From a virus (Duplodnaviria; Heunggongvirae; Uroviricota; Caudoviricetes): DNA of 40,414 nt. A program made the position numbers and the translations under genes. The stretch is from the IMG/VR virus record IMGVR_UViG_2917398303_000004, positions 1 to 40,414 of that record; one strand, 5' to 3'. Below, one piece after another: positions 330 to 38,794 of this stretch; within the stretch, counting starts at the first letter, position 1, and every line of letters starts with the position of its first letter. Below the pieces are notes generated by a model. That model was not told the origin of the DNA. It saw nothing but the letters and a program-made list of their open reading frames with translations, and did no database searches.

Positions 330-1439
330 GTGAGCAAAAGAATCGAGTTTGCAAACACGATACGAGGCGTTGCCAGCATGGTTGTTATGTTGGCTCATTA
401 CATAATATCGTTTAATGCCTTCTCTGGTGGCTATGGAGGCCTCCCAAAGATAGAAGGAGGTGTTTTTGATTATGCCTCTGGCCTGTTAGGTTTTGGGATG
501 CCAAGTTTCAGTTACGGAGCATTTGGTGTTGCTCTATTTTTTTTAGTTAGCGGCTTTGTAATACCATTATCTCTAACAAAATTAACAACTCAGCGGTATG
601 GTATACTTGCCTTCATGGTTTCACGAGTTCTAAGGATATGGCCCGTATATGTAATTGGTTTTTCCATATCTATGCTATTCCGATGGTTGTCATTCAATGG
701 CTCAGAACTTAGTGACGCCTACAACATTTATGATGTCATATACCACCTAACTCTTTTCAGGGATTGGATTGGCGGAATGCCTTTAGATGGTGTTGGCTGG
801 ACGCTTGAAATTGAGATTAAATTCTATCTGCTATCAGCAATATTTGCTTATGCGACGGTAAAAGGTAAGCAGTACATTACGATCGTTGCTATGGCAGGGG
901 CGTTTGCTGGGTACTACTTTGGCGTTCAGACGCCTATATATTTTATATTCCCGCACAGCATCCTGTATTGCTTCCAGTTCATACTGTTCATGACCATAGG
1001 CACTAACTTATACTTACTGTACGCTGGAGTGATCAGCAAGAACAAGGCCATACTATGGATAGGGGTGTCGTTAGGTTCATTTATTTATGTTTGCCCTCCT
1101 GATTCCAAAGTTGGATATCTTGTCGCATTTTTAGTGTTCCTGTCATGTTATGTCGCAAGAGATAGCTTTAATGGAGGTGCGATAACATCTTTCTTTGCAA
1201 AGATTAGCTACCCAATGTACGTTGTGCATGCTCTTTTTGGATATGTGACAATGTGGTACATGATAAATCTTGGTTTAAACACCTACGTCGCCCTGATTTT
1301 ACAAATATTGATGACAATATCGATATCATACTTAATGCATTTGTATGTAGAGATCCCCTCCCAAAAATATGGAAAAATCGCGTCTGACTTCATAACGGGT
1401 AGAAGGAAGGTAATTCCTGCTGGTATGGCTGTATCGTGA
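330..1439 (+). CDS. Acyltransferase family 3 integral membrane protein (O-antigen acetyltransferase-like lysogenic conversion candidate)
   Basis: 369-aa multi-TM protein, N-terminal R-G-x-A...LAHY motif typical of acyltransferase_3; GTG start; AT-rich relative to neighbours. Confidence 0.7.
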   Translation: MSKRIEFANTIRGVASMVVMLAHYIISFNAFSGGYGGLPKIEGGVFDYASGLLGFGMPSFSYGAFGVALFFLVSGFVIPLSLTKLTTQRYGILAFMVSRVLRIWPVYVIGFSISMLFRWLSFNGSELSDAYNIYDVIYHLTLFRDWIGGMPLDGVGWTLEIEIKFYLLSAIFAYATVKGKQYITIVAMAGAFAGYYFGVQTPIYFIFPHSILYCFQFILFMTIGTNLYLLYAGVISKNKAILWIGVSLGSFIYVCPPDSKVGYLVAFLVFLSCYVARDSFNGGAITSFFAKISYPMYVVHALFGYVTMWYMINLGLNTYVALILQILMTISISYLMHLYVEIPSQKYGKIASDFITGRRKVIPAGMAVS

Positions 1440-1446
1440 TAAGTAA

Positions 1447-1466
1447 GGGCCAGTGGTTTCTGGCCC
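1447..1466. terminator. Stem-loop between convergent acyltransferase and tail-fibre genes (GGGCCAG-N6-CTGGCCC)
   Basis: 7-bp perfect inverted repeat in the 34-bp gap between convergent stops. Confidence 0.4.
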
Positions 1467-1473
1467 TGCCTTA

Positions 1474-1917
1474 CTAAAAATTACCCTCTGACAGGAATGA
1501 ATAGGTTCCAGGCCCACCAGTAATGTTACACGTCCACGCTTTAGGCTGACCAGAGGTAGGATTACTATTGACTACACGCTCACCTTTTACCCATTCACCA
1601 GTGGTGGGAACGGATGCTCTTTTAAATTCAGTTTTTTTATAGGGAACTTTGTAATATGGTGTTCCCAAAATCATCAAACTAGGATCACAAATTAGCGCGG
1701 AGCCAGTGCCAACCTTAGAAAAGGATAACTGAATATCAGTTGCATCGCCTGGTACTTTTAAACAAATGCTTTTATAAACCCACGCATTACTTCCACCAAC
1801 TGGCACTGTTGCATCTTCTGAAAAATCACCGTTAATTGCCAATCGCAATTTGGTGGGGTTACCAAGGTCATTAACCCAAGCCCCGAACCAGACAAAATTA
1901 CTCCTCAGGAACGCCAC
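1474..1917 (-). CDS. Tail fibre C-terminal segment, in frame with and directly downstream of the 2029-3645 tail-fibre ORF
   Basis: Same reading frame as upstream ORF, separated by a single TAA (2029-2031) and 37 sense codons; GTG start at 1917. Confidence 0.45.
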   Translation of the reverse strand: MAFLRSNFVWFGAWVNDLGNPTKLRLAINGDFSEDATVPVGGSNAWVYKSICLKVPGDATDIQLSFSKVGTGSALICDPSLMILGTPYYKVPYKKTEFKRASVPTTGEWVKGERVVNSNPTSGQPKAWTCNITGGPGTYSFLSEGNF

Positions 1918-3701: not shown

Positions 3702-6419
3702 TTAAGCTACATTGCCGGGGTAGGAGGCATTGTCGTATTGATAGAAGGAGTCGCGGTATTCTTTTGCTGTAACCTGACATGTTCCGTCAGACTGCGGTGA
3801 AATCTCTGAGATTAGTGCGCTGTAACCAACACGTGAAGATTCGCAGAATATAAGGCGTGGAGGTTCGATAGATTGATCATTCAGTATGATGCCGATGAAC
3901 TCATCCTGTTCAGACACCGATAATTCATAATCACTAACCTTAGTAACTGGAAGCAAACCAGACGCTGAGCCATCCTGATAGCGAATTAACGCGCGCGGAT
4001 TGTTGAATGTCCAGTCAAGTGGTTCTGATACAGCGATAGTTGTTACACCACCTACAGTTCTCATATGATCAATCAAAGTGCTGATTGTTTTGCTACCTGG
4101 AATGTCATCAGTAAAAACAATTCGGTCGCCTACGTTATAGCAAAGCGCGTCCATTTCCGTGGTCGTGGTATGGGTCAAACGCTGCTGCCTGTACTTCATC
4201 AGCCTTCGCATGCCTATCTGATAAGCTCTGTCCTGATCAAGCACGCCATCAAGCGTATAATCTTCAACTTTAACTGGAGTAGGATTACCCGATGTTCTGC
4301 ACTGAACCGTCTCTTCAGCCCACGTAGTGCCATTAATGTAAGTGACATCCACGCCATCATAATCATCGGCTGATGGTGCAACGAAGGCCGTTTGAAGCGC
4401 TTCTGTCATTTCCTGCGGGCTAATGATTCCCGTCCACGTTTTCACCCCCTCCCTTCCAACAGAAGCCATACCATCAGACAGCAGGAAATAGCTTTTACCT
4501 GCACTGGTGACTTTCTGAAACATTTCAAGAGCGGAAACTGAGTCTGTTGTTGCGTAATCGAAAAACTCGCTATCAGGCGTCCAGTAAGATGATTCCAGCA
4601 TATCAATCGCTTCGTTATCCATCGCAAGCCCCAGCTCATTTCCAATGTGGTATAGCGCACCTGAAATGCTCCTGGAAATACCGGAATCATAAATGCGTGT
4701 GGCGACTACGTTGACACGGCGATCGGACTGAGCGGCAAGCTTTCCACCCGTTTCGACTGAGACAGCCATAGTGGTTACACCAGAGTATGATGATGGTCTT
4801 GAAAGCAACCTCCCCCTCAATGACTGCCAGTACATGTTATCCCTGCTGTTATCCTGACCTTGTTCGTTCGTTCTCCTGCATCTAACCTCTACCAAACCGG
4901 CTGATGCCAACGTGATACGCTCAGTAAAACCTAACCCATTAATATTTTGCTGATTGTAAGATCCAGTTTTGCTGGTCCAGCCTGAACCAGAACCGTAAAC
5001 ACGGTATTGAATTTCCCACTGAACAATCCTGTTCTGCTTCCTGCCCTTCTTGTTATACCCACAAATACCGTTTGGGAAGAAGAAATTGACCTCAAACATA
5101 TCAACGACTTCATTATCTGGACATGTGAGAAACGGCCCCATCCATTTATTGTTCTGATTTAATCCGTTTGCTTCAAAATCAAGCACTGTACGCGGCGTGA
5201 AACCTGGCCATTCCGGGTCAACAGCACCCTCTACAACACGCTGTAAAGTAACGGTGCTGGCGTCGATTTCCAGAATTTTATATTCGCTGCCTGAGTGCGA
5301 TACTGATAAACGAATGTATCCTTCAGGAATACCAGTAAATGCTGTTCCGGTTGCGCTTTCATACGCCAGAGCGATTGACGCCGTAACAACGTCTTCATCA
5401 ACAGGTTCTGAATGGGGGATGTAATCAGCAATGAAAAGCTGGTAATCGATACTGTTGTACCAGAGAGTAACTGGCATACCGATGTATGGAGCAATCTCTT
5501 CCAGTGTGTCACTGGTTATTCTGCTGTATGCGCCATCATTGGTGACAACATAAGAATCTGGAACAATCAGTTCAACAATTGCACCTTCTGTCCATGAGTC
5601 AGGAAGGTCGTTTGTATCAGTATTTCCATCGTCAGTACTAAGGCCGTTAAAGGTGATATCTGCACCAGATACCGTTAATGAATCTGCTACAACATCCTGT
5701 GTATCCGGGGCTGTCTGCGCCATATCAAGACCAGAACCAGATGCCGTTCCGCCTACTTCTGTTGAGTTGAACCAGTTTTCCGTTCGCTGATCACCGATAA
5801 TGTTCTGTCCTGGCTGATATACATTATAGGTAAACCCATCACCAAGAGAGGCGATTGGCGTTGACCCAACGCGAATGTCGCCATCACCAAATGAAAAACG
5901 GCCCATACCCAGCACCACAAACATTTCAACCGTCATTACAGTCGGATCATCAGTTGAGAATCTTGTTACTGGTTGCACTGCATAATCTGGATAAATACGG
6001 CTGCGACCAAATAACTCGCGTATCGGATCACCCAATTTCGCGTTATTCGCTTTAGCAGGATTTACATCAAGTGGATTACCTGTTCCTGATGAATAACCAC
6101 CAAGATCACCAACACCAGGAGCAAAGAATAAAGCGTAAGCTACAGACGCAACTGATACGGCAACTGCAATCCAGGCGAGAGCTACAGCACCGTAAGGAAC
6201 AGGATAAATTCTGACGTCGCTATCCGGGCTGATTGCGAACTCAAACCACGCCTGAGATGGAATATTTTTCCCATCAACGTCAATTGTGATCGGCTGTTTA
6301 ATATCAGGCTTATAGCCCTCTACTTTTTTTGACAGCCATTGATGTATGGTTATAGCGCCATGTTCATGTGTTTCCAGCGGTTCGCCGGGGATGCGGGAGG
6401 GGTAAATTCGGATAGTCAC
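3702..6419 (-). CDS. Tail tip / host-specificity (central fibre, J-like) protein
   Basis: 905-aa protein immediately downstream of NlpC/P60 tail assembly gene and upstream of tail fibre; start overlaps upstream stop. Confidence 0.6.
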   Translation of the reverse strand: MTIRIYPSRIPGEPLETHEHGAITIHQWLSKKVEGYKPDIKQPITIDVDGKNIPSQAWFEFAISPDSDVRIYPVPYGAVALAWIAVAVSVASVAYALFFAPGVGDLGGYSSGTGNPLDVNPAKANNAKLGDPIRELFGRSRIYPDYAVQPVTRFSTDDPTVMTVEMFVVLGMGRFSFGDGDIRVGSTPIASLGDGFTYNVYQPGQNIIGDQRTENWFNSTEVGGTASGSGLDMAQTAPDTQDVVADSLTVSGADITFNGLSTDDGNTDTNDLPDSWTEGAIVELIVPDSYVVTNDGAYSRITSDTLEEIAPYIGMPVTLWYNSIDYQLFIADYIPHSEPVDEDVVTASIALAYESATGTAFTGIPEGYIRLSVSHSGSEYKILEIDASTVTLQRVVEGAVDPEWPGFTPRTVLDFEANGLNQNNKWMGPFLTCPDNEVVDMFEVNFFFPNGICGYNKKGRKQNRIVQWEIQYRVYGSGSGWTSKTGSYNQQNINGLGFTERITLASAGLVEVRCRRTNEQGQDNSRDNMYWQSLRGRLLSRPSSYSGVTTMAVSVETGGKLAAQSDRRVNVVATRIYDSGISRSISGALYHIGNELGLAMDNEAIDMLESSYWTPDSEFFDYATTDSVSALEMFQKVTSAGKSYFLLSDGMASVGREGVKTWTGIISPQEMTEALQTAFVAPSADDYDGVDVTYINGTTWAEETVQCRTSGNPTPVKVEDYTLDGVLDQDRAYQIGMRRLMKYRQQRLTHTTTTEMDALCYNVGDRIVFTDDIPGSKTISTLIDHMRTVGGVTTIAVSEPLDWTFNNPRALIRYQDGSASGLLPVTKVSDYELSVSEQDEFIGIILNDQSIEPPRLIFCESSRVGYSALISEISPQSDGTCQVTAKEYRDSFYQYDNASYPGNVA

Positions 6420-10978: not shown

Positions 10979-11476
10979 TTAGCTTGTTGGTTGGGCCTTT
11001 GGAACCCAAACCCCCTGTCCTGAACGCTGAATAGTTGCTGAGGTTTGTACGACCGTATTAGCCTGGAAGTCGAACGGGAAATCAGAAACATAGCCCTGGA
11101 ATACATACCAGGTACGCGTATCCGGTAAAGAAAGACCATCTACTGCATCTGGATCACCAGAAGTCGCTACCGTTGGTTCATCCGTTCCATCAGCCCAGCC
11201 AATAGCGAAGGTCAGGTTTGTTTGATCGCTTGATTCGGCAAGATTGCTCAGCATGACATGACTGGTGTTTGCCGGGTCTGCGTTAAGAGCTACCGTAGCC
11301 TGACCAGGTGTGCGCAGACCTTTTTTGTAGGAACGAGTACTGGTTTCACTCAGACAGGTATCTTCAATCTGATCTGCCGGGCTACTACCTGGTGAGAACG
11401 AAGTAATACATTCAACTTCACTGACCACACCGTTATTCAGAACGTACATCTGAGTGCCTTGAGTCACTACTGACAT
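10979..11476 (-). CDS. Major tail (tube) protein
   Basis: 165-aa ORF directly upstream of the chaperone pair; preceded by a terminator/attenuator hairpin. Confidence 0.6.
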
Positions 11477-15728: not shown

Positions 15729-17375
15729 TTAGCTGGTAGCGCCAGTGCTGTAATCAACGCCGGAGATAACAGCTACTGCTGCATCGCGACGGCGTTTCCA
15801 GTTAATCCAGCGCTCTGCACGAATGGCCACGCTGTTGGTCTGGAACATGGATACCAGTTCCACTGCCGTTGGTGTGGTGCTGTCATGGGTCGGAGTACTC
15901 TGCATTTCCAGAGAAGCTTCGCGAGACATATCAACGGCGACACCGCCGTCATCAGCCAGGTACACATCCGGCGCGTTAACCAATACCAACTGATTGCCAA
16001 CGTACTGGGAGACAATTACTGGCAGACCCTGGAATGTACCGCCCAGCATGGTCATGTCAGGATACTCTTTCTGGCCCAGGGCATTTTTACGCATTGAGAG
16101 AGTGAGAGCCGTAGTACTGGACATCAGCCATACCGCGCCATTCGGCTGCAGGTTATTGGTAATAAATTGACCAAATGCTGCTGCAGCATCGGTATCCGGA
16201 TCGCCAGTAGACGGAATCGCAGTAATGCCGTTGGTAATAGATGCAGGGGAAACATCAGCCACTGCCGCTTTTGCCGGGTCGATGAAGTCGGTATCCAGCC
16301 GCGCGATCACCGCTTCAGCCAGGGCGTTACGCACCAGAGCATCAGCAGATGGATTTGAGAAACGGATCAACTCTTCGGTCAGTACTGCAATAGAAGCCAC
16401 CTTGGAGAAACCGAAGGTGATGGTTGCGAAGTCAAACTTGGTCAGAGGCTTGGCTTTACCCTGACCAACCCAGTTAGCAGAACCTCCGGAGGTCTGCGCC
16501 GGAATTCGAACATTGAACGGAACCTGACGCAGGGACGGGATGTTACCCTGGCCAAAACGTCCGATAATGGTCTGAGGACGCAGAAACTCAACGAAATCCT
16601 GCGCGTAATCCTGATATTCAACCAGTGCACCAGCCCAGGCAGGGTCTGTGGTAGTGCCAGCACTTACCGCAGCTTTCAGAACGTGATGAAGTTTGGTGTC
16701 ATCAGGATACTGGTTTTTCGCAATCTGTAGCGCTTCGGAGCGGCTACCGTTACCAGCTGCCAGAGACTTGGCAAAACGGGCAAAGGCAATACCTTTTTCC
16801 AGCTTAGGCTCTACACGGATGATGGATGGTGCGTTATTCACCACTGTAACTTCACCAGATGCTGCTTTAGTTACTGGCTTGGCGGTTGATGCCATGCTGG
16901 TTTCCATATCACGCAGGCGTTTAAGGTGCTCGTCGACCGCTTTGATTTCAGTAGAGGTGTTGTCGTAGCTTTCTGTTTCTTCCGCATCCAGCGTGCGGCC
17001 TTCATCGGCGGCTTTGCTCATGATGTCGTTCAGTGAAGAGGCCAGCGCTGCACGCTTGTTTTCAAAACTTTTGATCTGTTCAGCGATATTCATCGTTGAT
17101 TTTCCTTTTTGAGAAGATTTATTCGGTGCTGAAGCGCCAGCAGAATTTATGGTTTTCACTACCGGTTTCTCAGTGCCGAGCGCGGCGAGTAACTGGCGGT
17201 CAAACGATTTAACGGTTTGAATCGAACACTCGGCATTCGCCGGGATCGTTACTGCAGAGACTTCAAGAAGCTCCCATTCAAGAAAATGGATGCCACCAGA
17301 GCCGAGATATGCGTATTTAATTGGCTTGAAGCCGATAGAAAGGCCTTTCACAGACCTGATTTGATCGATGCCCAC
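15729..17375 (-). CDS. Major capsid protein (HK97 fold) with N-terminal scaffold-like delta region and the C-terminal part of an S78 prohead protease domain
   Basis: GLSIGF protease Ser motif at N-terminus, coiled-coil segment, then capsid-fold core; in a different frame from the protease N-terminal ORF. Confidence 0.75.
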   Translation of the reverse strand: MGIDQIRSVKGLSIGFKPIKYAYLGSGGIHFLEWELLEVSAVTIPANAECSIQTVKSFDRQLLAALGTEKPVVKTINSAGASAPNKSSQKGKSTMNIAEQIKSFENKRAALASSLNDIMSKAADEGRTLDAEETESYDNTSTEIKAVDEHLKRLRDMETSMASTAKPVTKAASGEVTVVNNAPSIIRVEPKLEKGIAFARFAKSLAAGNGSRSEALQIAKNQYPDDTKLHHVLKAAVSAGTTTDPAWAGALVEYQDYAQDFVEFLRPQTIIGRFGQGNIPSLRQVPFNVRIPAQTSGGSANWVGQGKAKPLTKFDFATITFGFSKVASIAVLTEELIRFSNPSADALVRNALAEAVIARLDTDFIDPAKAAVADVSPASITNGITAIPSTGDPDTDAAAAFGQFITNNLQPNGAVWLMSSTTALTLSMRKNALGQKEYPDMTMLGGTFQGLPVIVSQYVGNQLVLVNAPDVYLADDGGVAVDMSREASLEMQSTPTHDSTTPTAVELVSMFQTNSVAIRAERWINWKRRRDAAVAVISGVDYSTGATS

Positions 17376-17665
17376 GCTTCTTCAAGCCTAGCCACAAGTT
17401 GCGATGGCATGTCAGGTGTTGGCTTAACAAGTTGCGCCGTGATCTGAAGCCCTTCATTCACTTTCTTTGCAGAACAGTTCCCAATAGGTTGGGTTCTGTC
17501 GTGCTGCCAGAGAAAAGGGTTTTCACTGCCGAACTTCGCACCGTCTGGGTCCATAATGTCGCCGTCACGGTCAGGTGATGGTGTGGAAGCAATCCCGGTG
17601 ATTATCCGTTTGTCCTCATCCACCGCTTTCACCGTCATGATCGTACATGCGCGGTCAAGCTTCAT
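17348..17665 (-). CDS. Prohead protease (S78/U35 family) N-terminal portion, frame-broken from the downstream ORF
   Basis: Contains the WQHD catalytic His region; the Ser motif lies in the overlapping ORF 15729-17375. Confidence 0.55.
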   Translation of the reverse strand: MKLDRACTIMTVKAVDEDKRIITGIASTPSPDRDGDIMDPDGAKFGSENPFLWQHDRTQPIGNCSAKKVNEGLQITAQLVKPTPDMPSQLVARLEEAWASIKSGL

Positions 17666-17723: not shown

Positions 17724-17996
17724 TTATATAAAAAAAACCTGGTAATCTTTCTTCTTCGCTTCAGGATTAAGTGCCATTAGCGAAACGGCATTAAACAGGG
17801 CCATAAGGGGGTCAATTTTCCCCTTTCCGCTGGCCTGTTTGGTGATGAGGATAGCGTTACCTTTTGGCTCTACTCTGGCGTTGCCTACACACCAGGCCAT
17901 TAATGGCTGTCCACCATGAATAAGCACCTCCCTCTGCAAGCTTGCGCTCTGTTGTCTTAATCGCACCACCAAGTCTCCAGCCCTGGCTGACACCAA
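17724..17996 (-). CDS. Terminase large subunit C-terminal fragment (alternative frame)
   Basis: HGGQPLMAWCVGNARVEPKGNAIL...GKIDPLMA resembles terminase large subunit C-termini. Confidence 0.5.
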   Translation of the reverse strand: MVSARAGDLVVRLRQQSASLQREVLIHGGQPLMAWCVGNARVEPKGNAILITKQASGKGKIDPLMALFNAVSLMALNPEAKKKDYQVFFI

Positions 17997-19383
17997 CCAC
18001 TGAATCTTCAGGTATTTCAGCTTCTACAAGAGCATCAAGAATCTGACCGACACCAGAAGGGTCAATGCCAATTTTATCCAGCAGTTCCGCATCATTAATA
18101 CGGCTGACATATTCAGCGACTTCCTCCGTGTCCTGTCCTACTCGTTTTACGATAGTGAGGTCACCGGCCTTAACGAAATCGTTGAACCTGGATTCCTCGC
18201 TTTTGCGGCGGCGCACAGCTATTTCATGCGCCCAGGCATGGCCCCAGCCAATCCACTCACGGGTTTCTTTGTCACGACCAATAATGTAAAGACCAAGAAG
18301 GTCATCAAGGCCACCACCATCTATCCCAACCGTAGCAACCTCAGCTCTCTGAAGGATATCGCTGAATGTTACCTGCCTAATTTGCGGCTCCCAGAAATCA
18401 ACGCCTGCCCATCGGTCACTGCGGAGGTTCAGACCAATTTCGATATTGAGGTGTTTCGCAAGGAACTGCTGTAATGTGCCGTCTGTTTTGTTCTGGTTCT
18501 TCAGAAGCTGATCGGCAATCCATTCTTCACTTACCGAACGTCCAATATTTGGATTGGTGATGTAGAAATTTTTTGGTTCAAGGTAAGCCTTACTTTCCAC
18601 CATAGAGTCAGGGAATTCATACAGGACGCCGAGTGTTTTAAGGTCATTAATCTTTCCATCTCGCACAGCACGCCAGTAATCAAGGCGTTCTTTGAATACA
18701 CCAGCAGGTGGTTCATCACTTTGTGTAGTCAGGAATATAACCCAGCCTTCGTTGCGAGATACCTGACCACCAAGTGCTTCCATAAACATGGCTTCGGCAT
18801 TAGCTCGCTTGCCAAACAACCAAAGCTCATCAACCAGAATGCGCCCTGACTTTTTACCTGAAACAGTATCGGTGTCAGCTGCTACTACTTTGAGTGTATT
18901 TCGCGTTACTCGGTGTGTGATGGTGCGGATATGGTCCTGAATCTGGAACATATCAGACAGCTCATCATCGGCGCGTATCATCCCGGCAGCAGGTTTAAAA
19001 CTGTTATCTGCAACCTCTTTTGTCGGCGCGAGAATCAGGTGCTCTTCATCTTCACGCCAGCACAGGATTAGCGCGGTCAGCATAATCCCTGCAGCGATGG
19101 TCGATTTTGTGTTCTTTTTCGAGATAAGTAGTCCATATTCGCGGATTAACTGCTTACCAGTCTCTGCTTCATAGCCACCGAAGATGGCATTTACAAAGTC
19201 AAATACCCATTCCTCTGAGCACTCACCAAATGTTGGCTTCCCTGGTAAATCAGAGACGCGTAACTCTTTGAAGATTCCAAGTGCCTGTTCTGCCTGGTCT
19301 GGGAAAATTGGTGGTGGGATGATTGATTGCTTTGCAACCAGAAGAGATTCCCATTCAGGGCAAGCCGTGGTCCATTGAGCCAT
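17857..19383 (-). CDS. Terminase large subunit (frame-disrupted near its 3' end)
   Basis: ATPase and nuclease-like regions; C-terminal terminase sequence continues in ORF 17724-17996 in another frame. Confidence 0.8.
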   Translation of the reverse strand: MAQWTTACPEWESLLVAKQSIIPPPIFPDQAEQALGIFKELRVSDLPGKPTFGECSEEWVFDFVNAIFGGYEAETGKQLIREYGLLISKKNTKSTIAAGIMLTALILCWREDEEHLILAPTKEVADNSFKPAAGMIRADDELSDMFQIQDHIRTITHRVTRNTLKVVAADTDTVSGKKSGRILVDELWLFGKRANAEAMFMEALGGQVSRNEGWVIFLTTQSDEPPAGVFKERLDYWRAVRDGKINDLKTLGVLYEFPDSMVESKAYLEPKNFYITNPNIGRSVSEEWIADQLLKNQNKTDGTLQQFLAKHLNIEIGLNLRSDRWAGVDFWEPQIRQVTFSDILQRAEVATVGIDGGGLDDLLGLYIIGRDKETREWIGWGHAWAHEIAVRRRKSEESRFNDFVKAGDLTIVKRVGQDTEEVAEYVSRINDAELLDKIGIDPSGVGQILDALVEAEIPEDSVVGVSQGWRLGGAIKTTERKLAEGGAYSWWTAINGLVCRQRQSRAKR

Positions 19384-19386
19384 TGA

Positions 19387-19923
19387 TTACCCCTTGTTAT
19401 TAACAACAAGTTTCGGCGGTGCCATTGCCCCAAACTTGCTACCCGTAGCTGCGACCTTCGCGGCGGCATGTCTCGCATCCTTTTTACCGCCTTCTCCTTT
19501 TTTGGGGTGAAGGTATGGCAGCATTGCTTTTGCGGCGTCTTTTCTGACATCTGTCTCTTCTGATACGTCGTTCATCACTGCTTTCAGGAACTCAAGCGGA
19601 TCATCAAATTCCTTCACCGTTCTGTTAACAACTTTTGGCAGTTCATCTGGTTCAGAAACAGCCTGCTCGACAATGACTTCGGCCCCACGTTTTTTACTGA
19701 TAAACGCGATGATATCCGGGTCTTTTGCCAGCCGGGAACCCTGAGACCTCGCGGTTTTCTCGGAGTAACCGGCCTTTCGGGCTGCTTCAGCCTGGGATGA
19801 ACCGGACATCAGCGCTTGTGCGAATTTGCGCTTTTGTCCTGTTAACACGTCAACATCCTCCAAAGGGGAAAATTTTCTGCGCATGAGAGGGGGCGCGGTG
19901 TCCAGCGCGATCGGCGTTGACAC
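19387..19923 (-). CDS. Terminase small subunit
   Basis: 178-aa ORF with helix-turn-helix-like AEAARKAGYSEKTA segment, immediately upstream of terminase large subunit. Confidence 0.7.
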   Translation of the reverse strand: MSTPIALDTAPPLMRRKFSPLEDVDVLTGQKRKFAQALMSGSSQAEAARKAGYSEKTARSQGSRLAKDPDIIAFISKKRGAEVIVEQAVSEPDELPKVVNRTVKEFDDPLEFLKAVMNDVSEETDVRKDAAKAMLPYLHPKKGEGGKKDARHAAAKVAATGSKFGAMAPPKLVVNNKG

Positions 19924-19949
19924 CCACTGATACCCCCCCGGGTGTTTGG

Positions 19950-20318
19950 TCAGAGAATTACGATGCCAGATTGTGATTTATCTTTCGGCACAGAGTGCTT
20001 CAGAGCCTCACCATCAGGCTGGTTCATTGATGCTTCGCGCGATGACTTACCTGAGTGACACTCAATGCACAGAGTCCACAGGTTGCGCTCATCGTTGTCA
20101 CCACCGAACTGTAGAGCTATGCGGTGATCAAGCTCGCTGTCATGAAGGTCAACTACTCGCTTACACATACAGCAGTGACCACCGTCACGAACATAAATAC
20201 GCCGCTTTAGGCTTACCCTTGCGCTACCACTCACACGGCGATGCTCACCATAAACAGGCTTTATTCGGCGTGTGTCGATAGCCTTTAGGCGCGGTTGTAG
20301 TGTCTTTAGCTTAGACAT
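19950..20318 (-). CDS. HNH endonuclease (terminase-associated)
   Basis: CxxC...DH...N...CxxCH motif; GGAGG Shine-Dalgarno 5 nt upstream of ATG at 20318; adjacent to terminase small subunit as in HK97-like phages. Confidence 0.75.
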   Translation of the reverse strand: MSKLKTLQPRLKAIDTRRIKPVYGEHRRVSGSARVSLKRRIYVRDGGHCCMCKRVVDLHDSELDHRIALQFGGDNDERNLWTLCIECHSGKSSREASMNQPDGEALKHSVPKDKSQSGIVIL

Positions 20319-20904
20319 GTAACCTCCATGCTCTACGTCTTTCTGTTCTTGGCTGATTGTCTCTGGCTGGTTCCACTGGCTGTCCGTCAGCGTGGTCAAC
20401 GAGCGAATAGCATGGATAGACAACAGGACCACCGTAAGCATCGCCTACTGCATAGTCTGCTGCTTTGCCGTGATTCCATTTATCCAGAACTCGCTTGATA
20501 TGCTGATGCGGTACGCTGTAGCAGACGCCATGGATCAGGCGTGGAAGTGTGATGTAATCCGTTCTGCTCTTATCTGCTGCGATTAGCTTTGATGCTATAT
20601 CGAGTTGATATTGTGGAGGACGACCAGTACCGAGATAGAAAGAAACCAGCGCATCAGGGAAGCGCTCAATCCACTCAGCGAGTTTGTTGGTGAACCCATC
20701 AACTGGAATTGCATCGTCTTCTAAAATGACCACTCGGCAAGACTGCTCTTCTGCCCATTCAAGAGCACGGCGGTGATTCCAGTTAGCACCGTTATCTCCC
20801 GTGTCGATAAGCAGTAATGCACCTATCGACTCTGCCAGAATTAATGCTTTTTTGTGGCGCAAATGGTGACCAACAACCACAAACTTTACTTGTGCCTCCA
20901 CCAT
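20311..20904 (-). CDS. Hypothetical protein, possible GT-A-like nucleotide-sugar transferase
   Basis: 197 aa; beta-strand/helix start KFVVVGHH and acidic VVILEDD segment suggest a DxD-type fold; overlaps both neighbours. Confidence 0.4.
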   Translation of the reverse strand: MVEAQVKFVVVGHHLRHKKALILAESIGALLLIDTGDNGANWNHRRALEWAEEQSCRVVILEDDAIPVDGFTNKLAEWIERFPDALVSFYLGTGRPPQYQLDIASKLIAADKSRTDYITLPRLIHGVCYSVPHQHIKRVLDKWNHGKAADYAVGDAYGGPVVYPCYSLVDHADGQPVEPARDNQPRTERRRAWRLHV

Positions 20905-22343
20905 GCCAACTCCTTGCCAACGCCTTCAGACTTGAAGATGGTATGAACCTTCGGCCCGGTAATAACCTTGTTGCCAAATGACTTTGCCACCATGCAAAAT
21001 GCACCCATATCAACTTTCGTTTCTGGAGCTTTCTCAATCTTCCAGAAGCGATGGCTTTCAATCAGATAATGCTGACGGATGATACGATGCGCGAACTCCA
21101 TAACGTCTTCACGGCTACCACCTAACAGGCCAGCATTAAGCAGTGGTTCATCGCGATGCTGCTCGATGAAATCGCTATACGCCTTGCCGTGGTGATTAGC
21201 TTTCATCCATTCGTCAGCATACGTCTTGTGCTCTGAGCCAACGTAAATTTTACCCGACTTCATTTCTTCCCATGGCTCTCGCAACATTTCAACGTCAGTA
21301 CCATCAGTGCACCAGACAAGGTGATACTCAGGGTGCGCACGTAGAAACTGATAGATGTGAAGCCAGCGGGCAAAGTATGGGCTCATGTCCACCAGCGGGA
21401 CTTCCCCCAAGCCAGCACCAGTTGGCGATTCTTTTAATTCGTCAGCCAGGACGATCGGTAATGCGCCGGATATTGAGTCAGCCCATGATTGCAAAACCTG
21501 CGGGTCGGGTTTCATCTTCCCGCCGCGCTGTGGGTCTGGCTGGCTTGTGAGTAGCGTCGTAATCACCAGATTTGGGTTTCTGCTGTACGAGGCAAAGCCT
21601 GTATAACCGCTGTCGCGTCGCGTGTTGAAGATGCCAACGTTTCTTTTTACCAGCGCCTCTCGGTCAGGTCGTGGAATTGAGCGCGTGCCCTCTTCGTTCT
21701 CATCCATTGAATGAATCAGTTTTTCAGAGCCGGCCACATCAGCGAACGCCCAGGTCGATAACCCGGCATTGTGAATGCGTAGCGCCAGATCGGGATGCTC
21801 ATACATGCCGCGACCATAAACCGGATCGAAACCGCCAACCTTCACGATCGCGCTGCGGTGGTAATACAACATCACACCGCGTTGTCCGGTGTAAGCGATA
21901 TGCTTATCATCCCGGTACAGCACAGCCATATCATTAAGCTTTCTCGGCCCAGCAAGATCGAGAAACTGGTAAGCCAGGTGCGGCTCGGGGGATTCGATGT
22001 AGGGAAGATGCCAGTTATCAGCGATGGGCCATGCATCATCATCCCATAGGAAGAAATGCTCGCACCCCGCGTCCATAAGTGCTGAAAGGCTGGCGTTCTT
22101 TGATGCAACTATTCCGAGAGATGTTTTATGACGTAGCAACTTCACACCTTCTGGAACTACAGCAGCATGGTTTGAGCCATCATCGATAACAACCACCAGC
22201 GCACCAGATGGAAGATGCTTCATGTGCTGCTCAATAGAGCGTTTAAGCACTTCAGGACGGTTATGGGTTGTTATTGCGATGCCAATTCGCGATGAGTTGG
22301 TGCATTCTGGTACAAAACGCACACCCCCTATTAAGACTTCCAT
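20886..22343 (-). CDS. Family-2 glycosyltransferase domain protein with approx 250-aa C-terminal domain of unknown function
   Basis: N-terminal IGIAITTHNRPEVL...VVVIDDGS...FFLWDDDAWP matches GT2 signature incl. DxD; no TM segments seen. Confidence 0.65.
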   Translation of the reverse strand: MEVLIGGVRFVPECTNSSRIGIAITTHNRPEVLKRSIEQHMKHLPSGALVVVIDDGSNHAAVVPEGVKLLRHKTSLGIVASKNASLSALMDAGCEHFFLWDDDAWPIADNWHLPYIESPEPHLAYQFLDLAGPRKLNDMAVLYRDDKHIAYTGQRGVMLYYHRSAIVKVGGFDPVYGRGMYEHPDLALRIHNAGLSTWAFADVAGSEKLIHSMDENEEGTRSIPRPDREALVKRNVGIFNTRRDSGYTGFASYSRNPNLVITTLLTSQPDPQRGGKMKPDPQVLQSWADSISGALPIVLADELKESPTGAGLGEVPLVDMSPYFARWLHIYQFLRAHPEYHLVWCTDGTDVEMLREPWEEMKSGKIYVGSEHKTYADEWMKANHHGKAYSDFIEQHRDEPLLNAGLLGGSREDVMEFAHRIIRQHYLIESHRFWKIEKAPETKVDMGAFCMVAKSFGNKVITGPKVHTIFKSEGVGKELAWWRHK

Positions 22344-22666
22344 ACACCACCATCAGCAAGATTACGCGTTGCAAGAAAGTCGTTCACCGCACCCCGTAAC
22401 TCTTCTACCTGTTCAACGGTTAATGGCTCACGTGGATGGATCACAAGATGGATCGCGGTAGGTGCGAGAGGGTTATCCAAATTAATGCGCGGTTGGTTTT
22501 CTGAGTGCTCATTACTAAGGTTAAATGTCGCGATAACCTTCGGTATGGCGTTCGGTTCAGTTTCTAATACTGTTGAAGCCTGTCCATCAAGAAGAACACC
22601 ACCTACGGCTATTCCATATCCGAAGAAACGATTACCACGATACAATTTTGCGAGCTGATATTTCAT
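22331..22666 (-). CDS. Hypothetical protein (first gene of glycosyltransferase operon)
   Basis: 111-aa ORF with AAGGA Shine-Dalgarno; 13-nt overlap with downstream GT gene. Confidence 0.5.
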   Translation of the reverse strand: MKYQLAKLYRGNRFFGYGIAVGGVLLDGQASTVLETEPNAIPKVIATFNLSNEHSENQPRINLDNPLAPTAIHLVIHPREPLTVEQVEELRGAVNDFLATRNLADGGVWKS

Positions 22667-22792
22667 GTGCGTTTCCTTTTAGACGTGAGCCTGTCGCACG
22701 GTAACGCCGCCCGAGAGGTAAACGCAACCTAACGGCATTACCCAGGCTCACTACTGAAAGACTCTCTTTGATGTGCGCGTGCGATGCGCATT

Positions 22793-22819
22793 AAAAAAGC
22801 CCCGCTATTGCGAGGCTAT
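22793..22819 (-). terminator. Rho-independent terminator, copy 2 of a 27-bp perfect repeat
   Basis: AAAAAAGCCCCGCTATTGCGAGGCTAT on + strand; hairpin plus T6 on minus strand; identical to 24161-24187. Confidence 0.55.
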
Positions 22820-22836
22820 TTGTTAAGGGGACTTGC

Positions 22837-23091
22837 TTAGTTAATGCTTAAAATTTCCACAGCTTGTCTTATTTGCCTTGAATCTAGGTCTTCAATATCA
22901 GTAGCCACCAAATAGAAGGATGATTCGCCAGTAAGGGATGTAACGTTAGCTGTAATAATCTCTAATTCAACCTCAGTATCATCGGAAAGCATCCAGTTGA
23001 TAGAGCTAAGTCCATCACCTACGTTGATAACCTCAGGTTTTTTACCCTTAAGAATTAAAATGACACTTTTCATATAATTTCTCTGTTCCAT
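22837..23091 (-). CDS. Hypothetical protein (AT-rich)
   Basis: 84-aa ORF inside repeat-bounded cassette. Confidence 0.45.
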   Translation of the reverse strand: MEQRNYMKSVILILKGKKPEVINVGDGLSSINWMLSDDTEVELEIITANVTSLTGESSFYLVATDIEDLDSRQIRQAVEILSIN

Positions 23092-23141
23092 GACACTTCA
23101 AAACATTATCACAGGCACTCATTAAATGCCTGCTGTAATGC

Positions 23142-23375
23142 TTAATCGTCGAGTTGAAGAACGCCGTGTTCCTCTGACTCTGAGTAGGCGATTAAACCTT
23201 CATATGCCGGAACAATTTCGCCACTTTCTGATTCAAACTCAGGGATGGTTGAGCGGGCGATGGTATAGAAAGGCTGGCCTTCCTGCTCTGCAAATTCTGC
23301 AAGGGATTTGATCTGCTCTGCTGTCAGAACTAATGCTGTCATTGCTTTATCCTTTAGAGGGTATATCGATTGCAT
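23142..23375 (-). CDS. Hypothetical acidic protein
   Basis: 77-aa ORF inside repeat-bounded cassette. Confidence 0.45.
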   Translation of the reverse strand: MQSIYPLKDKAMTALVLTAEQIKSLAEFAEQEGQPFYTIARSTIPEFESESGEIVPAYEGLIAYSESEEHGVLQLDD

Positions 23376-23437
23376 TATCCGCTTACGGGGATAATCATTA
23401 TCAAGCCCACCAGCAGATGAGCTTTGTAATGGTCAAA

Positions 23438-24004
23438 TCAGGTGCGGGTTAATTTGCCTTTTCCCGTGTCAGCCAGCCAGAATTCAATCAGTACATTGGC
23501 CTCATCGACCAGAGTTTTGATTTTCGATACATGGGCAGCCTTCACTCCCTTCCACTCATTCAGTCCAGTGCCAAAAAGGCTGGCAATCCCTTTATCGCGC
23601 TTCATGTCCATGCACGCCTGATTGAGTTCTTGCATCACGCTGGACTTGCGGGGATTAACCGCGACACCTTTCGTCCAGTATTCATAGAGTACGTCGTCGC
23701 ATTCATCCTGATACTGGATCACCTTATCGCGGATTTCTGGATTTACTTTGTTGGGGCTGATGGTTTGGAGCCAGCCAGCAAGTTTACGCAGGGGTAGACA
23801 GACCATTTTTCGTGTTTTGCCATCGTCTGCAACCATAGGGATTTCCTCTACAGTTGAGCTAAAGCGTTTTCTTAACTTCGTTAGCTGCCCCATCCAGTCC
23901 ATTCCCATACCCTTAACAATGGGCTTCATCGGGGTATAAGGTTCACCATTATGGTTAACAACATAGAGTGCGCTGCCGTGGAACGGCACGGTAATGGTAT
24001 TCAT
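23438..24004 (-). CDS. Antirepressor-like protein (P22 Ant N-terminal domain type)
   Basis: ITVPFHG...NGEPY...CLPLRKLAGWLQTI...QYQDECDDVLYEYW resembles P22 antirepressor N-domain; AAGG Shine-Dalgarno upstream of ATG at 24004. Confidence 0.55.
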   Translation of the reverse strand: MNTITVPFHGSALYVVNHNGEPYTPMKPIVKGMGMDWMGQLTKLRKRFSSTVEEIPMVADDGKTRKMVCLPLRKLAGWLQTISPNKVNPEIRDKVIQYQDECDDVLYEYWTKGVAVNPRKSSVMQELNQACMDMKRDKGIASLFGTGLNEWKGVKAAHVSKIKTLVDEANVLIEFWLADTGKGKLTRT

Positions 24005-24160
24005 TGCGTTTGCCTTACTTTGAAATGAACCTTCGCCGCAATAGAAATCAGCCCACCGAAGGCTCGCCAGCACTAACTGACTTCTTCGAAGGCTCATATC
24101 AAAGGGTTCGGATTCGGTGTGGTTAGTTGCGCATTGCGGTGCGCGGTGAAATGCAGTTAC

Positions 24161-24187
24161 AAAAAAGCCCCGCTATTGCGAGGCTAT
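24161..24187 (-). terminator. Rho-independent terminator, copy 1 of the 27-bp repeat, overlapping the o-spanin stop codon
   Basis: Same 27-mer as 22793-22819. Confidence 0.55.
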
Positions 24188-24400
24188 AGTTTCTTTCTGG
24201 CAGTTCGCCTGCCACGCTTTGTTATGCGCCAGAATGTCGCGCTTCGTCTGCTTATCCAGCACGTCGATATCGTTGTCGGTCAGATAGATAATTCTGGTCC
24301 ACAAACACCCGGTATCAACCACCACCGGGGCGGGTGAAGTTTTCGCGCAGCTCGCGATCAACATCGTCATCAGGCATATGGTTAACACTCTGCTGTACAT
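24173..24400 (-). CDS. o-spanin (Rz1-like outer-membrane lipoprotein)
   Basis: Signal peptide with LIASC lipobox, embedded in the +1 frame of the i-spanin gene. Confidence 0.6.
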   Translation of the reverse strand: MYSRVLTICLMTMLIASCAKTSPAPVVVDTGCLWTRIIYLTDNDIDVLDKQTKRDILAHNKAWQANCQKETIASQ

Positions 24401-24593
24401 TGCTGGCCTCTCTGGTGACTTCTGCCTGACGTTCCGCCACTGCAACCTTCGCCGCTGCGTTTTCTTCAGTGCGTTGTCGATCGGCTTTCGCTTCTGCTTT
24501 GCTGGTTCCGCTAATATGGCCAAGACCAAAACCACCGGCAGCGGCAACACAGATAGCACCAATAACACCGATGATGATTTCTACTATGCTCAT
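24315..24593 (-). CDS. i-spanin (Rz-like)
   Basis: N-terminal TM helix then charged coiled-coil; ATGA overlap with endolysin stop. Confidence 0.65.
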   Translation of the reverse strand: MSIVEIIIGVIGAICVAAAGGFGLGHISGTSKAEAKADRQRTEENAAAKVAVAERQAEVTREASNVQQSVNHMPDDDVDRELRENFTRPGGG

Positions 24594-25201
24594 GCAATCA
24601 CCGCTTTCGCTTTGGTGTAACGAACACACCTGTCGTTAATGCCGTTCTGACCGCCATTGATAATCTGAGTGATGCGCGCCAGGTCATCGGTGTACTTCAG
24701 ACAACCTTTGGAGACGTAGAACCATGCAGCAGAACGTGCAGCATTAATGTCTTTCTCCAGCAGTTCAGGGTTAGTAACCAGGTCAAGCTTCAGACCATTG
24801 CCGCAATCGCGGTAATTAGTGAGACCGGTAATCTGAATTAACCCGCGTCCACGGTATTTCCAGCCATAACCAGCAGCTTTGTTACCAAGACGGTTGCTGT
24901 ATACCAGGTTTGCGATAGCTTCCTGACTTGCTGGCTTACCGTTCGCACGCCCAAGCATTGATGCCTGATAGTTCGTTGCCCGGCGTCCAAACGTAGTCAG
25001 TAATGCAGCAGGCGTGTAGTTGAAGTTCTCCACCAGCGCAGAGAATCCCGCTGATTCATGGCCTGCCTGAGCAATGAACATCGCCTTATCTTTTGGCTCA
25101 GTGATGCCAAACTCTTTCATTGCATCCGTAATCGGCTGAAACCAGCGCGCAGCTAACCCGGCGCTAATAACAGCCGCCTGTTGAAATTGTGATTGGTTCA
25201 T
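24590..25201 (-). CDS. Endolysin, glycoside hydrolase family 19 (chitinase-like lysozyme)
   Basis: AQAGHESAGF and YRGRGLIQITG motifs of GH19 lysozymes. Confidence 0.85.
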   Translation of the reverse strand: MNQSQFQQAAVISAGLAARWFQPITDAMKEFGITEPKDKAMFIAQAGHESAGFSALVENFNYTPAALLTTFGRRATNYQASMLGRANGKPASQEAIANLVYSNRLGNKAAGYGWKYRGRGLIQITGLTNYRDCGNGLKLDLVTNPELLEKDINAARSAAWFYVSKGCLKYTDDLARITQIINGGQNGINDRCVRYTKAKAVIA

Positions 25202-25458
25202 TAGTGCCTCAGAGCATCAATAAGACGCGCCACGTTTCCCCGAGCCCAAAGCACGGCGGCGCATATCAGGATGTTAACGATGACCACCAGCCAGTGTGAT
25301 TCCAGGTATAGGCCGAACAGATAGCGGAACGGGATGCTGGCATAAACCAGCACCGTGAAATAAGCGAGAAGAGAAACTATCGGGCGATGTCAGGCACCGC
25401 CACGCTGGTAAAACATCAGAGTAAGAACGATGATCGCGCTAATGCCCGCATTGATCAT
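25201..25458 (-). pseudogene. Holin-like small membrane protein interrupted by in-frame TGA (25390-25392)
   Basis: Own translation: MINAGISAIIVLTLMFYQRGGA-stop-HRPIVSLLAYFTVLVYASIPFRYLFGLYLESHWLVVIVNILICAAVLWARGNVARLIDALRH; TAATG overlap with endolysin start. Confidence 0.35.
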
Positions 25459-34574: not shown

Positions 34575-34653
34575 GCGGCATTAGCTCAGTTGGATAGAGC
34601 AACGGCCTTCTAAGCCGTGTGGGTCGCAGGTTCGAATCCTGCATGCTGCACCA
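34575..34653 (+). tRNA. tRNA-Arg (anticodon UCU) with encoded CCA
   Basis: Hand-folded cloverleaf: 7-bp acceptor, D-arm, anticodon stem ACGGC/GCCGT with loop CTTCTAA, 7-nt variable loop, T-arm GCAGG-TTCGAAT-CCTGC; resembles argU-type tRNA. Confidence 0.8.
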
Positions 34654-37924: not shown

Positions 37925-38570
37925 TAAATACCGTTTGGAGGATATGCGGCGCGAAAGCGGTGAAAAGGGAGAGCTTGCCCGGTGGGTTATTCAACTCCAA
38001 GCTGACCTTGATAGAGAAATAAGAAAGAGCGCTAGCGAAAGGGCTATGCTATCGCGCCTGGCAGTGATAATGCACGGTTCTGAAACAGATTTAAACCTGC
38101 TAACGGTAACCGCTAAATCGCTGGTTGAGCGCTGCAAAACCTTATCGCATGAGCGTGACGTACTGCCGGCCCAGTCATCTGACGAAGTGAACGCCGCCGC
38201 ATGGAAACTGCATGACATGCTGACTGAACACGGCCCTTTAAATGGGCGTCAGTTCAACAATCTGAAAGGCTGTTTCTACGAGGCATTAAAGGTTGCTATG
38301 AGCAACTCTCCGATAACTCCTGATGGTTACGTGATGGTCCCGAAGAAACTAACCGCTGAGAACGGCGCAAAGAGTGTGCTGTCCGGTGAGTTTTCAGAAA
38401 CGAAATTTATAAACTGCCCAGAGTGTTTTGGTGATGATGAATGCGAAACATGCGACGGAAGCGGAAGAATTGAAATCACCGTTCCTGTCACATGGACGAC
38501 CATCAAAGCTATTTGGGCTAAAGGTGTCGAGCATTTCGCAGCAGCACCTCAGCAGGAGGTGAAGCCGTGA
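37917..38570 (+). CDS. Hypothetical protein with C-terminal CxxC...CxxCxGxG zinc-finger-like motif
   Basis: CPECFGDDECETCDGSG motif; start at MIDKYRLEDM. Confidence 0.45.
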   Translation: MIDKYRLEDMRRESGEKGELARWVIQLQADLDREIRKSASERAMLSRLAVIMHGSETDLNLLTVTAKSLVERCKTLSHERDVLPAQSSDEVNAAAWKLHDMLTEHGPLNGRQFNNLKGCFYEALKVAMSNSPITPDGYVMVPKKLTAENGAKSVLSGEFSETKFINCPECFGDDECETCDGSGRIEITVPVTWTTIKAIWAKGVEHFAAAPQQEVKP

Positions 38571-38794
38571 CTAAATCAGATCTCCTCCAGAAGGTAGCGG
38601 CACTTGCTACAGAGTTTCACACACTGGCCTGCGAGCTGGATATTGGCGATGAACGCACTGAGATGTTTGAGATATACAACGTGCTGAGGAGTCTTGGGCG
38701 CAAAGGATATGCAAGCCAGATAAGCAAAGCTACCAACCCGCTGTTATGGGCGGTTGACGATAACGACGATGATTGGGATGAGGATGATGAGTGA
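38567..38794 (+). CDS. Hypothetical small acidic protein
   Basis: 75-aa ORF with poly-Asp/Glu C-terminus. Confidence 0.4.
   Translation: MTKSDLLQKVAALATEFHTLACELDIGDERTEMFEIYNVLRSLGRKGYASQISKATNPLLWAVDDNDDDWDEDDE

Follow-up and report, generated by a model that had tools for sequence, protein, structure and literature searches.

A candidate virion O-glycosylation module of the mycobacteriophage Che8/Corndog kind in an enterobacterial prophage

To our knowledge, phage particle glycosylation is known only from mycobacteriophages. The glycans of mycobacteriophage Che8 reportedly sit at the C termini of its capsid and tail-tube subunits, and little sign of virion glycosylation is said to have been found in other phages. 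O-glycosylation of Che8 and Corndog virions is credited to Freeman et al. (2023, Cell Host Microbe 31:1216) in PMC12363180, PMC11256854 and PMC11600133. According to citing papers, the glycosylated Che8 proteins are the capsid and the tail tube, the glycans lower antibody binding, and the glycosyltransferases (GTs) Che8 gp110 and Corndog gp38 are reported to be essential for capsid glycosylation (PMC12363180). Glycosylation of phage Rita is claimed only in a poster cited by PMC11256854, and the Rita paper is silent on glycosylation. A 2025 survey of ten other phages found no virion glycosylation (PMC12894461), and our literature search for virion glycosylation in phages of Gram-negative or other non-actinobacterial hosts found no report. 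Here we analyze two adjacent GT genes, hereafter the cassette, in a prophage deposited as IMG/VR record IMGVR_UViG_2917398303_000004. The window, by which we mean the whole stretch analyzed, comprises positions 1 to 40,414 of this record, with the cassette region at 19,950 to 22,666.

We consider it likely that the two genes form the core of a virion O-glycosylation module of the Che8/Corndog kind, carried by an enterobacterial prophage. The initial annotation of this DNA had suggested either phage DNA or virion proteins as the substrate. Virion proteins are strongly supported, because the smaller enzyme is homologous to gp110 and gp38, the arrangement of the genes matches that of cluster F mycobacteriophages, and the cassette co-occurs with a short C-terminal tag on capsid and tail tube proteins; the DNA option found no support.

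Homology and gene order of the two glycosyltransferases

The cassette and the genes that follow it are arranged as listed below (aa, amino acids; ORF, open reading frame).

22331..22666, minus strand: 111-aa ORF; accessory gene upstream of, and outside, the conserved core
20886..22343, minus strand: GT485, 485 aa; two-domain glycosyltransferase, proposed glycan-extending enzyme
20311..20904, minus strand: GT197, 197 aa; small GT-A, GT25-like enzyme, proposed initiating protein O-glycosyltransferase
19950..20318, minus strand: HNH endonuclease of the terminase-associated type (HK97 gp74-like; PF01844, E 7.5e-7; phrog_589)
19923..19387, minus strand: TerS, the next gene past HNH
17857..19383, minus strand: TerL, after TerS

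Three overlapping minus-strand ORFs of 111, 485 and 197 aa had been described at this site, and their coordinates were confirmed, with overlaps of 13 nucleotides (nt) between the 111-aa ORF and GT485 (22331-22343), 19 nt between GT485 and GT197 (20886-20904) and 8 nt between GT197 and the HNH gene (20311-20318). The HNH ORF as a whole spans 20441..19950, and it is the start MSKLK at 20318 that yields the 8-nt overlap. As had been noted, the cassette runs into HNH and terminase genes, HNH, TerS and TerL following in that order. Judged by this position, between the Q/lysis genes and HNH-terminase, the cassette appears to be part of the late operon.

The assignment of the 197-aa protein as a glycosyltransferase is supported by its match to phrog_854 'glucosyltransferase' (E 4e-70) and by an invariant LEDDA motif. 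GT197 aligned end to end with Che8 gp110 (36.6% identity over 191 aa, E 1e-29) and also matched Corndog gp38 (31.6% identity, E 1e-18); it is the orthologue of Che8 gp110, Corndog gp38 and Misha28 gp93. The motifs common to GT197 and its homologues are NH(R/K), LEDDA, SLYLG, SLVDH and RxAW, with the catalytic motifs kept in enterobacterial, Aeromonas, jumbo Klebsiella and mycobacterial phages. Glyco_transf_25 (PF01755) is matched by Che8 gp110 (32.3 bits) and Misha28 gp93 (31.4 bits) above its cut-off of 24 bits, in the LEDDA region only, and a PDB sequence-profile search with GT197 returned nothing. This gp110-type GT is the sole component common to every version of the system.

Beside the small GT stands a further, putatively glycan-building enzyme, GT485, which matches phrog_1579 'glycosyltransferase' over its full length (E 7e-227). 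It is 72% identical to the HK542 protein, 68% identical to that of ENT47670 and, again over the full length, ~44-45% identical to its orthologues, the partner GTs of more than 380 cluster F mycobacteriophages (e.g., Misha28 gp91). BLASTP detected no similarity between GT485 and either Che8 gp108 or gp109 (best E 0.39). The protein has two domains.

21615..22292, minus strand: N-terminal GT2-like GT-A domain of GT485, aa ~18-243
20889..21593, minus strand: C-terminal domain of GT485, aa 251-485, uncatalogued

To call the first of these an unmistakable GT2 domain, as the initial annotation did, slightly overstates its match to PF00535, which at 20.6 bits falls under the gathering score of 23.3. 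The GT assignment itself retains support from the phrog_1579 match and the invariant DDGS and DDD motifs. NCBIfam gave sub-threshold GT2-type hits to the N terminus only, namely to exopolysaccharide (EPS), mycofactocin and rhamnosyl transferases.

The C-terminal part had been flagged as an unknown domain, and it is a separate domain of ~235 aa that has no match in Pfam, NCBIfam or PDB. Its relatives at E<=1e-3 number 539 representatives, of which roughly half are free-standing proteins 210-240 aa long. A Pfam scan of this domain, its Misha28 counterpart and 52 diverse stand-alone homologues identified no family, one homologue giving an insignificant GT34 hit (E 0.06); PDB profile searches with GT485 and with the C-domain alignment found nothing; and hhalign comparison of the C-domain with the N-domain and with GT197 was uninformative, the diversity of the alignments being too low. 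Across the relatives a W, a DxxD and a P are invariant or nearly so, and there is an LLNAGxxGG motif. In the AlphaFold2 model, which is of low confidence, strands and helices alternate and DxxD lies at the end of a strand. Because of these two motifs and this strand-helix pattern, it is plausible that the C-domain is a second nucleotide-sugar transferase domain.

Although a three-gene operon had been proposed, the conserved core comprises two genes. The 111-aa ORF is an accessory, optional passenger, since it is full-length in 12 of the 125 cassette-bearing (GT+) relatives (~10%) and its N-terminal domain occurs alone in 3 loci that lack the cassette (GT-) as well. Only its N-terminal 64 aa match a PHROG, phrog_10235 (unknown function), and neither Pfam nor NCBIfam gave a hit.

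When both GTs were compared by tblastn with 50,697 phage genomes, the pair was matched in ~30 records of enterobacterial, Cronobacter, Aeromonas and jumbo Klebsiella/Serratia phages and in hundreds of mycobacteriophages. A synteny survey had been suggested, and the order and neighborhood of the cassette do recur in cluster F mycobacteriophages: in Misha28, the succession GT478 (gp91), 64-aa ORF, GT203 (gp93), genome end (cos), HNH, TerS and TerL is the order of the window. A gp110-type GT lies beside HNH and cos in Che8, Tweety, HK542 and mEp390. The HNH gene immediately follows GT197 in the window, HK542, mEp390, FSL SP-016 and Tweety and lies on the far side of cos in Misha28, and in Che8 a 98-aa gene (gp111) stands between gp110 and the HNH gene. 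PHROGs already places the enterobacterial and mycobacterial proteins in common groups, and the RefSeq label is 'glucosyltransferase'. Because homology and gene order are shared, we regard the two-gene core, on sequence grounds, as one mobile module common to phages of two bacterial phyla.

Some versions of the cassette differ in layout. In mEp390 (L140), the GT genes are separated by an additional HNH-type gene whose annotation notes similarity to Corndog gp56 (38222..38734), and in AsXd-1 (L300) this place is taken by a 193-aa gene that looks HNH-like by eye (1237..1818), so that insertions between the two GT genes are evidently tolerated. The ~307-kb Klebsiella jumbo myovirus vB_KpM_FBKp24/phiKp24 (L304, record positions 139828..141897) has adjacent GTs of 486 and 196 aa, the latter 44.7% identical to GT197, and ~300-kb Klebsiella and Serratia phages related to it match both GT proteins. 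The phiKp24 cryo-EM paper describes a long C-terminal loop of the major capsid protein that forms the hexamer pore and does not mention glycosylation.

The adjoining packaging genes, and a DNA methyltransferase encoded elsewhere in the prophage, would also suit enzymes that glycosylate phage DNA against restriction, like the T4 alpha- and beta-glucosyltransferases. DNA modification was suggested as a possible role in the 2007 Tweety paper, but for another Tweety glycosyltransferase, gp104. We find this explanation scarcely credible. PHROG annotation of the main ORFs shows no genes for hydroxymethyl-pyrimidine or another sugar-accepting hypermodified base, Pfam, PHROG, PDB and fold searches gave no DNA glucosyltransferase match, and the mycobacteriophage homologues are, according to the papers cited above, enzymes that act on proteins. 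The covariation of capsid and tube C termini with the cassette, described below, would also go unexplained. Phage DNA glucosylation was rejected as a candidate, there being, in the annotation and searches just named, neither a deoxynucleoside monophosphate hydroxymethylase or hypermodification gene nor similarity to DNA glucosyltransferases.

Capsid and tube proteins nearly always end in [Gly/Thr]-Ser where the cassette is present

C termini were compared because those of the Che8 subunits are where the glycans are said to sit. Two proteins of the window are the predicted acceptors.

15729..17375, minus strand: major capsid protein (MCP), the C-terminal ORF of a protease-MCP fusion (phrog_617); ends ...DYSTGATS-COOH, terminal Ser codon 15732-15734
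10979..11476, minus strand: major tail (tube) protein (phrog_158); ends ..KAQPTS, terminal Ser codon 10982-10984

Only these two of the 48 predicted window proteins, the MCP (..GATS) and the tail tube (..QPTS), end in [G/T]-Ser. Their endings and those of three cassette-bearing mycobacteriophages are as follows.

Che8, GT+: MCP ..NKTGS, tube ..YSDGS
Corndog, GT+: MCP ..PLVGS, tube ..IKGDS
Misha28, GT+: MCP ..VPDGS, tube ..YSDGS
Window, GT+: MCP ..STGATS, tube ..KAQPTS

We surveyed 290 related IMG/VR loci, collected with GT197, the window MCP, the MCP of a cassette-less Stx phage and the HK022 tube protein as queries, and recorded for every locus whether the cassette was present and with which residues its MCP and tube protein end. 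The MCP ends in [GT]S at 115 of 116 GT+ loci versus 3 of 96 GT- loci, and the tube protein at 88 of 90 versus 6 of 70; both proteins carry the ending at 88/90 GT+ and 0/68 GT- loci. Fisher p-values range from 1e-35 to 1e-55 by locus and are ~1e-9 to 1e-10 if each distinct C-terminal 10-mer enters the count once, although the survey loci are related and these values overstate their independence, which tempers the case for a virion substrate. Within the window's own MCP family, all 111 GT+ proteins end in GS or TS, and among 54 GT- proteins there are 52 that end in GG, one in RV and one in GS. For tube proteins of the window family, GS or TS is found in 67/67 GT+ proteins and GS in 6/44 GT- proteins.

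Individual phages follow the same pattern. HK542, mEp390, FSL SP-016 and AsXd-1, all GT+, have the GS end on both proteins. Stx2a_1447, which is GT- and whose MCP is 74.6% identical, has ..SGG and ..AGG ends; the tube protein of HK022 (GT-) ends ..VVTP and that of HK97 (GT-) ends IS.

Since the head, tail and cassette modules are linked, co-inheritance inflates such an association. The module might glycosylate some other protein, either of the host or a non-structural phage protein, with the terminal Ser hitch-hiking on co-inherited head and tail modules, and the ..SGS capsid end kept in the cassette-less HK97 and HK022 would fit this explanation. We think it quite unlikely, because the association reappears in two unrelated MCP families and in three of the four tube-protein families found in GT+ loci, which recombine freely; because close GT- and GT+ relatives differ mainly at the last residues (..ASGG vs ..NQGS in the capsid protein, ..KVVTP vs ..AQPTS in the tube protein); and because an apparent exception, locus L113, has a truncated GT197 remnant. 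Moreover, the only two tagged proteins of the window correspond exactly to the two reported Che8 substrates.

Several observations do count against glycosylation of the virion. The evidence for it in enterobacterial phages is comparative throughout, and as to the reported C-terminal site of the Che8 glycans, the citing papers confirm only 'capsid and tail tube'. Two GT+ loci (L080/L081) combine an Ig-type/HK97-type tube protein ending ..TVTVA with a capsid protein ending ..GAGS, so that modification may here be confined to the head, and one GT+ MCP ends ..QNS. Conversely, HK97 and HK022 (L138/L139, MCP gene 4028..5185) lack the cassette and have a capsid protein ending ..FSSGS, probably a 'ready' substrate left by module exchange. 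On the enzyme side, GT197 of the window has no Pfam hit itself, so that its GT25 link runs only through homologues. The AlphaFold2 models are poor because only 70-91% identical sequences were supplied: that of GT197 (predicted local distance difference test, pLDDT, 64) lends no support to its assignment, and that of GT485 (pLDDT 55) allows no domain-level assignment of the C-domain.

The ..FSSGS ending of HK97 and HK022 is identical to that of the GT+ phages HK542 and AsXd-1; in mEp390 a single residue ahead of this ending is different.

How might virion glycosylation proceed? Both enzymes would be soluble and produced late, in the cytoplasm, alongside the structural proteins, as the position of their genes and the lack of membrane segments suggest. 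We infer that GT197 initiates, placing a first sugar on the hydroxyl of the terminal Ser that follows Gly or Thr in the MCP and tube protein. GT485 would then extend the glycan, with its GT2-like N-domain and probably a second transferase activity in its C-domain. The C terminus of the MCP should survive prohead maturation, which removes N-terminal parts. The end product would be head and tail surfaces bearing hundreds of short glycans, and the phage might benefit by being protected against antibodies or proteases, or by adhering differently to mucus or cell surfaces.

A broader proposal, on which we would place about even chances, is that O-glycans cover the heads and tails of many temperate Enterobacteriaceae phages, and of at least one lineage of jumbo Klebsiella phages, through a portable two-enzyme module whose minimal recognition tag is a free C-terminal [Gly/Thr]-Ser. 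Such a module would have passed between phages of Actinobacteria and Proteobacteria, with capsid and tube genes repeatedly gaining or losing the tag.

Surroundings of the cassette and state of the prophage copy

By PHROG annotation of its main ORFs, the entire window is a temperate enterobacterial prophage of the lambdoid type. It has genes for an integrase, a CI-like repressor, an O-like replication protein, the DNA methyltransferase, RusA and a Q antiterminator; further genes encode a holin, an endolysin, Rz, an Ant-like moron and an HK97-style head and tail. The DNA is only ~80% identical to E. coli prophages, and the nearest protein relatives are from Citrobacter, Enterobacter and Salmonella. 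Two elements precede the cassette.

22672..22789, minus strand: conserved structured leader upstream of the 111-aa ORF, non-coding, 118 nt
22798..22817, minus strand: terminator-like hairpin just upstream of the cassette, with an identical copy at 24166-24185

The leader is 96.6% identical to unannotated DNA of E. coli Nissle 1917 and 84% identical to Salmonella phage FSL SP-016. Its predicted fold is a long hairpin (-47.7 kcal/mol, z -2.9), and it has no Rfam match. In a scan of 19800..25400, no promoter-like site was found on the coding strand between the upstream terminator hairpin and the cassette.

This setting bears on the most serious alternative, modification of host lipopolysaccharide (LPS) or another polysaccharide. 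The enzymes could modify a host envelope glycan (LPS core, O-antigen, enterobacterial common antigen or a capsule precursor) at the cytoplasmic face, leading to lysogenic conversion or superinfection exclusion. It is the most serious because of the 'LPS biosynthesis protein' label of the GT25 family that Che8 gp110 and Misha28 gp93 match, and because the slot between lysis and terminase genes is the usual site of morons; the terminator-like hairpin and structured leader ahead of the cassette are in keeping with such a site. Polysaccharide building is also common among GT2 enzymes, the weak NCBIfam hits of GT485 being of this type, and the same prophage has an O-antigen acetyltransferase-like gene. 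We nonetheless judge envelope modification unlikely. It leaves unexplained why the cassette tracks [G/T]-Ser on the MCP and tube protein in several unrelated families, and the same GT pair occurs in phages whose hosts, Mycobacterium, Enterobacteriaceae and Aeromonas, have wholly different envelopes. The Che8 and Corndog homologues reportedly act on virion proteins. The cassette contains no flippase or membrane component, and the scan for a coding-strand promoter of its own was negative.

A particular form of envelope modification, O-antigen conversion of the GtrABC kind, was rejected. The initial annotation had found the three proteins free of transmembrane segments and unlike GtrABC in this respect, and both statements hold: no membrane-like segment was detected in the 111-aa protein, GT485 or GT197 (top Kyte-Doolittle 19-residue mean 1.14), and there was no Gtr family match.

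The acetyltransferase-like gene lies at the tail-fiber end of the prophage (330..1439, plus strand; phrog_3333, E 4.5e-37) and is possibly a serotype-conversion moron, separate from the GT cassette. The terminator-like hairpin (AGCCTCGCAATAGCGGGGCT and then a T run) is present in two identical copies, at 24166..24185 and 22798..22817 on the minus strand. They bracket a block of Ant-like, 77-aa and 84-aa genes at 22837..24097, which has the look of a moron cassette that was inserted along with a second copy of the terminator. Two tRNA genes (Rfam RF00005; 34373..34496 and 34575..34650, plus strand) adjoin the repressor gene in the early region; the first match covers 124 nt, unusually long for a tRNA.

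Two genes of this copy are frameshifted when compared with intact relatives that are 96-98% identical (IMG/VR L009 and L020). TerL has a 1-bp insertion near 17929, the relatives having 553 codons from stop to stop, and the protease-MCP gene has a 1-bp deletion near 17353, where the relatives have 645 codons from stop to stop. In the window the latter gene is represented by two ORFs.

17348..17665 and 15729..17375, minus strand: protease-MCP ORFs

With these frameshifts, particles may not be made from this copy, a further point against virion glycosylation as far as this prophage is concerned. The module might then be an inert passenger of a decaying prophage, which would apply to this copy only and is compatible with a virion glycosylation function of the module. 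We regard such decay as possible but doubtful, since both GT genes, the HNH, TerS and portal genes and the tail genes examined are intact ORFs, and two isolated single-base indels are also typical of assembly errors.

Significance and comparison with known systems

The kind of system that we propose is known from mycobacteriophages; what appears to be new is its spread across phyla and the simplicity of the predicted acceptor tag. If the cassette works like its homologues, sugar-coated virions would be expected among phages of Enterobacteriaceae from the gut and the clinic, namely Citrobacter, Enterobacter, Salmonella, Klebsiella, Cronobacter and some E. coli. This would matter for how antibodies and mucus recognize such phages, and for selecting or engineering therapeutic ones. 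Among laboratory coliphages, HK542 and mEp390 would offer a tractable model for phage glycobiology, and HK97, with its ..SGS capsid end, might be glycosylated by enzymes supplied in trans. Another use of the module could be sugar-tagging, within the cytoplasm, of any protein or phage to which 'GS' is appended. A two-residue tag is simple, and the prediction is directly testable in E. coli with existing laboratory phages.

How does the cassette compare with described phage glycosyltransferases? T4 alpha- and beta-glucosyltransferases resemble it in being phage-encoded soluble sugar transferases, but they need hydroxymethylcytosine DNA, for which the window phage has no pathway, and no similarity to them was detected. 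The GtrABC systems of temperate Shigella and Salmonella phages likewise comprise GTs encoded by temperate enterobacterial phages. However, Gtr proteins are integral to the membrane, act on undecaprenyl-phosphate sugars and periplasmic O-antigen, and are encoded next to integrase and attP, whereas the window cassette lacks membrane segments and a Gtr hit and lies in what appears to be the late operon.

The closest likeness is with mycobacteriophages. Che8 and Corndog share with the window a small GT of the gp110/gp38 type, homologous to GT197, and GT genes located beside packaging and structural genes, adjoining HNH and cos in cluster F. They differ in that their hosts are Actinobacteria and that of the window is among the Enterobacteriaceae, and the partners of gp110 in Che8 are gp108, a GT whose C-terminal part resembles a methyltransferase, and gp109, neither of them detectably similar to GT485. 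Glycosylation of Che8 and Corndog has been shown experimentally, whereas the Gram-negative module is a prediction from sequence comparison. Other cluster F phages, among them Misha28 (gp91-gp93), PopTart, Velveteen and more than 380 others, come nearer still, with counterparts of both GT485 (45% identity) and GT197 (~33-37% identity) in the same GT-GT-cos-HNH-TerS-TerL order and neighborhood. Misha28 differs from the window in the 64-aa ORF between its GTs, in genome GC content and in host, yet its MCP and tube protein both end in ..DGS.

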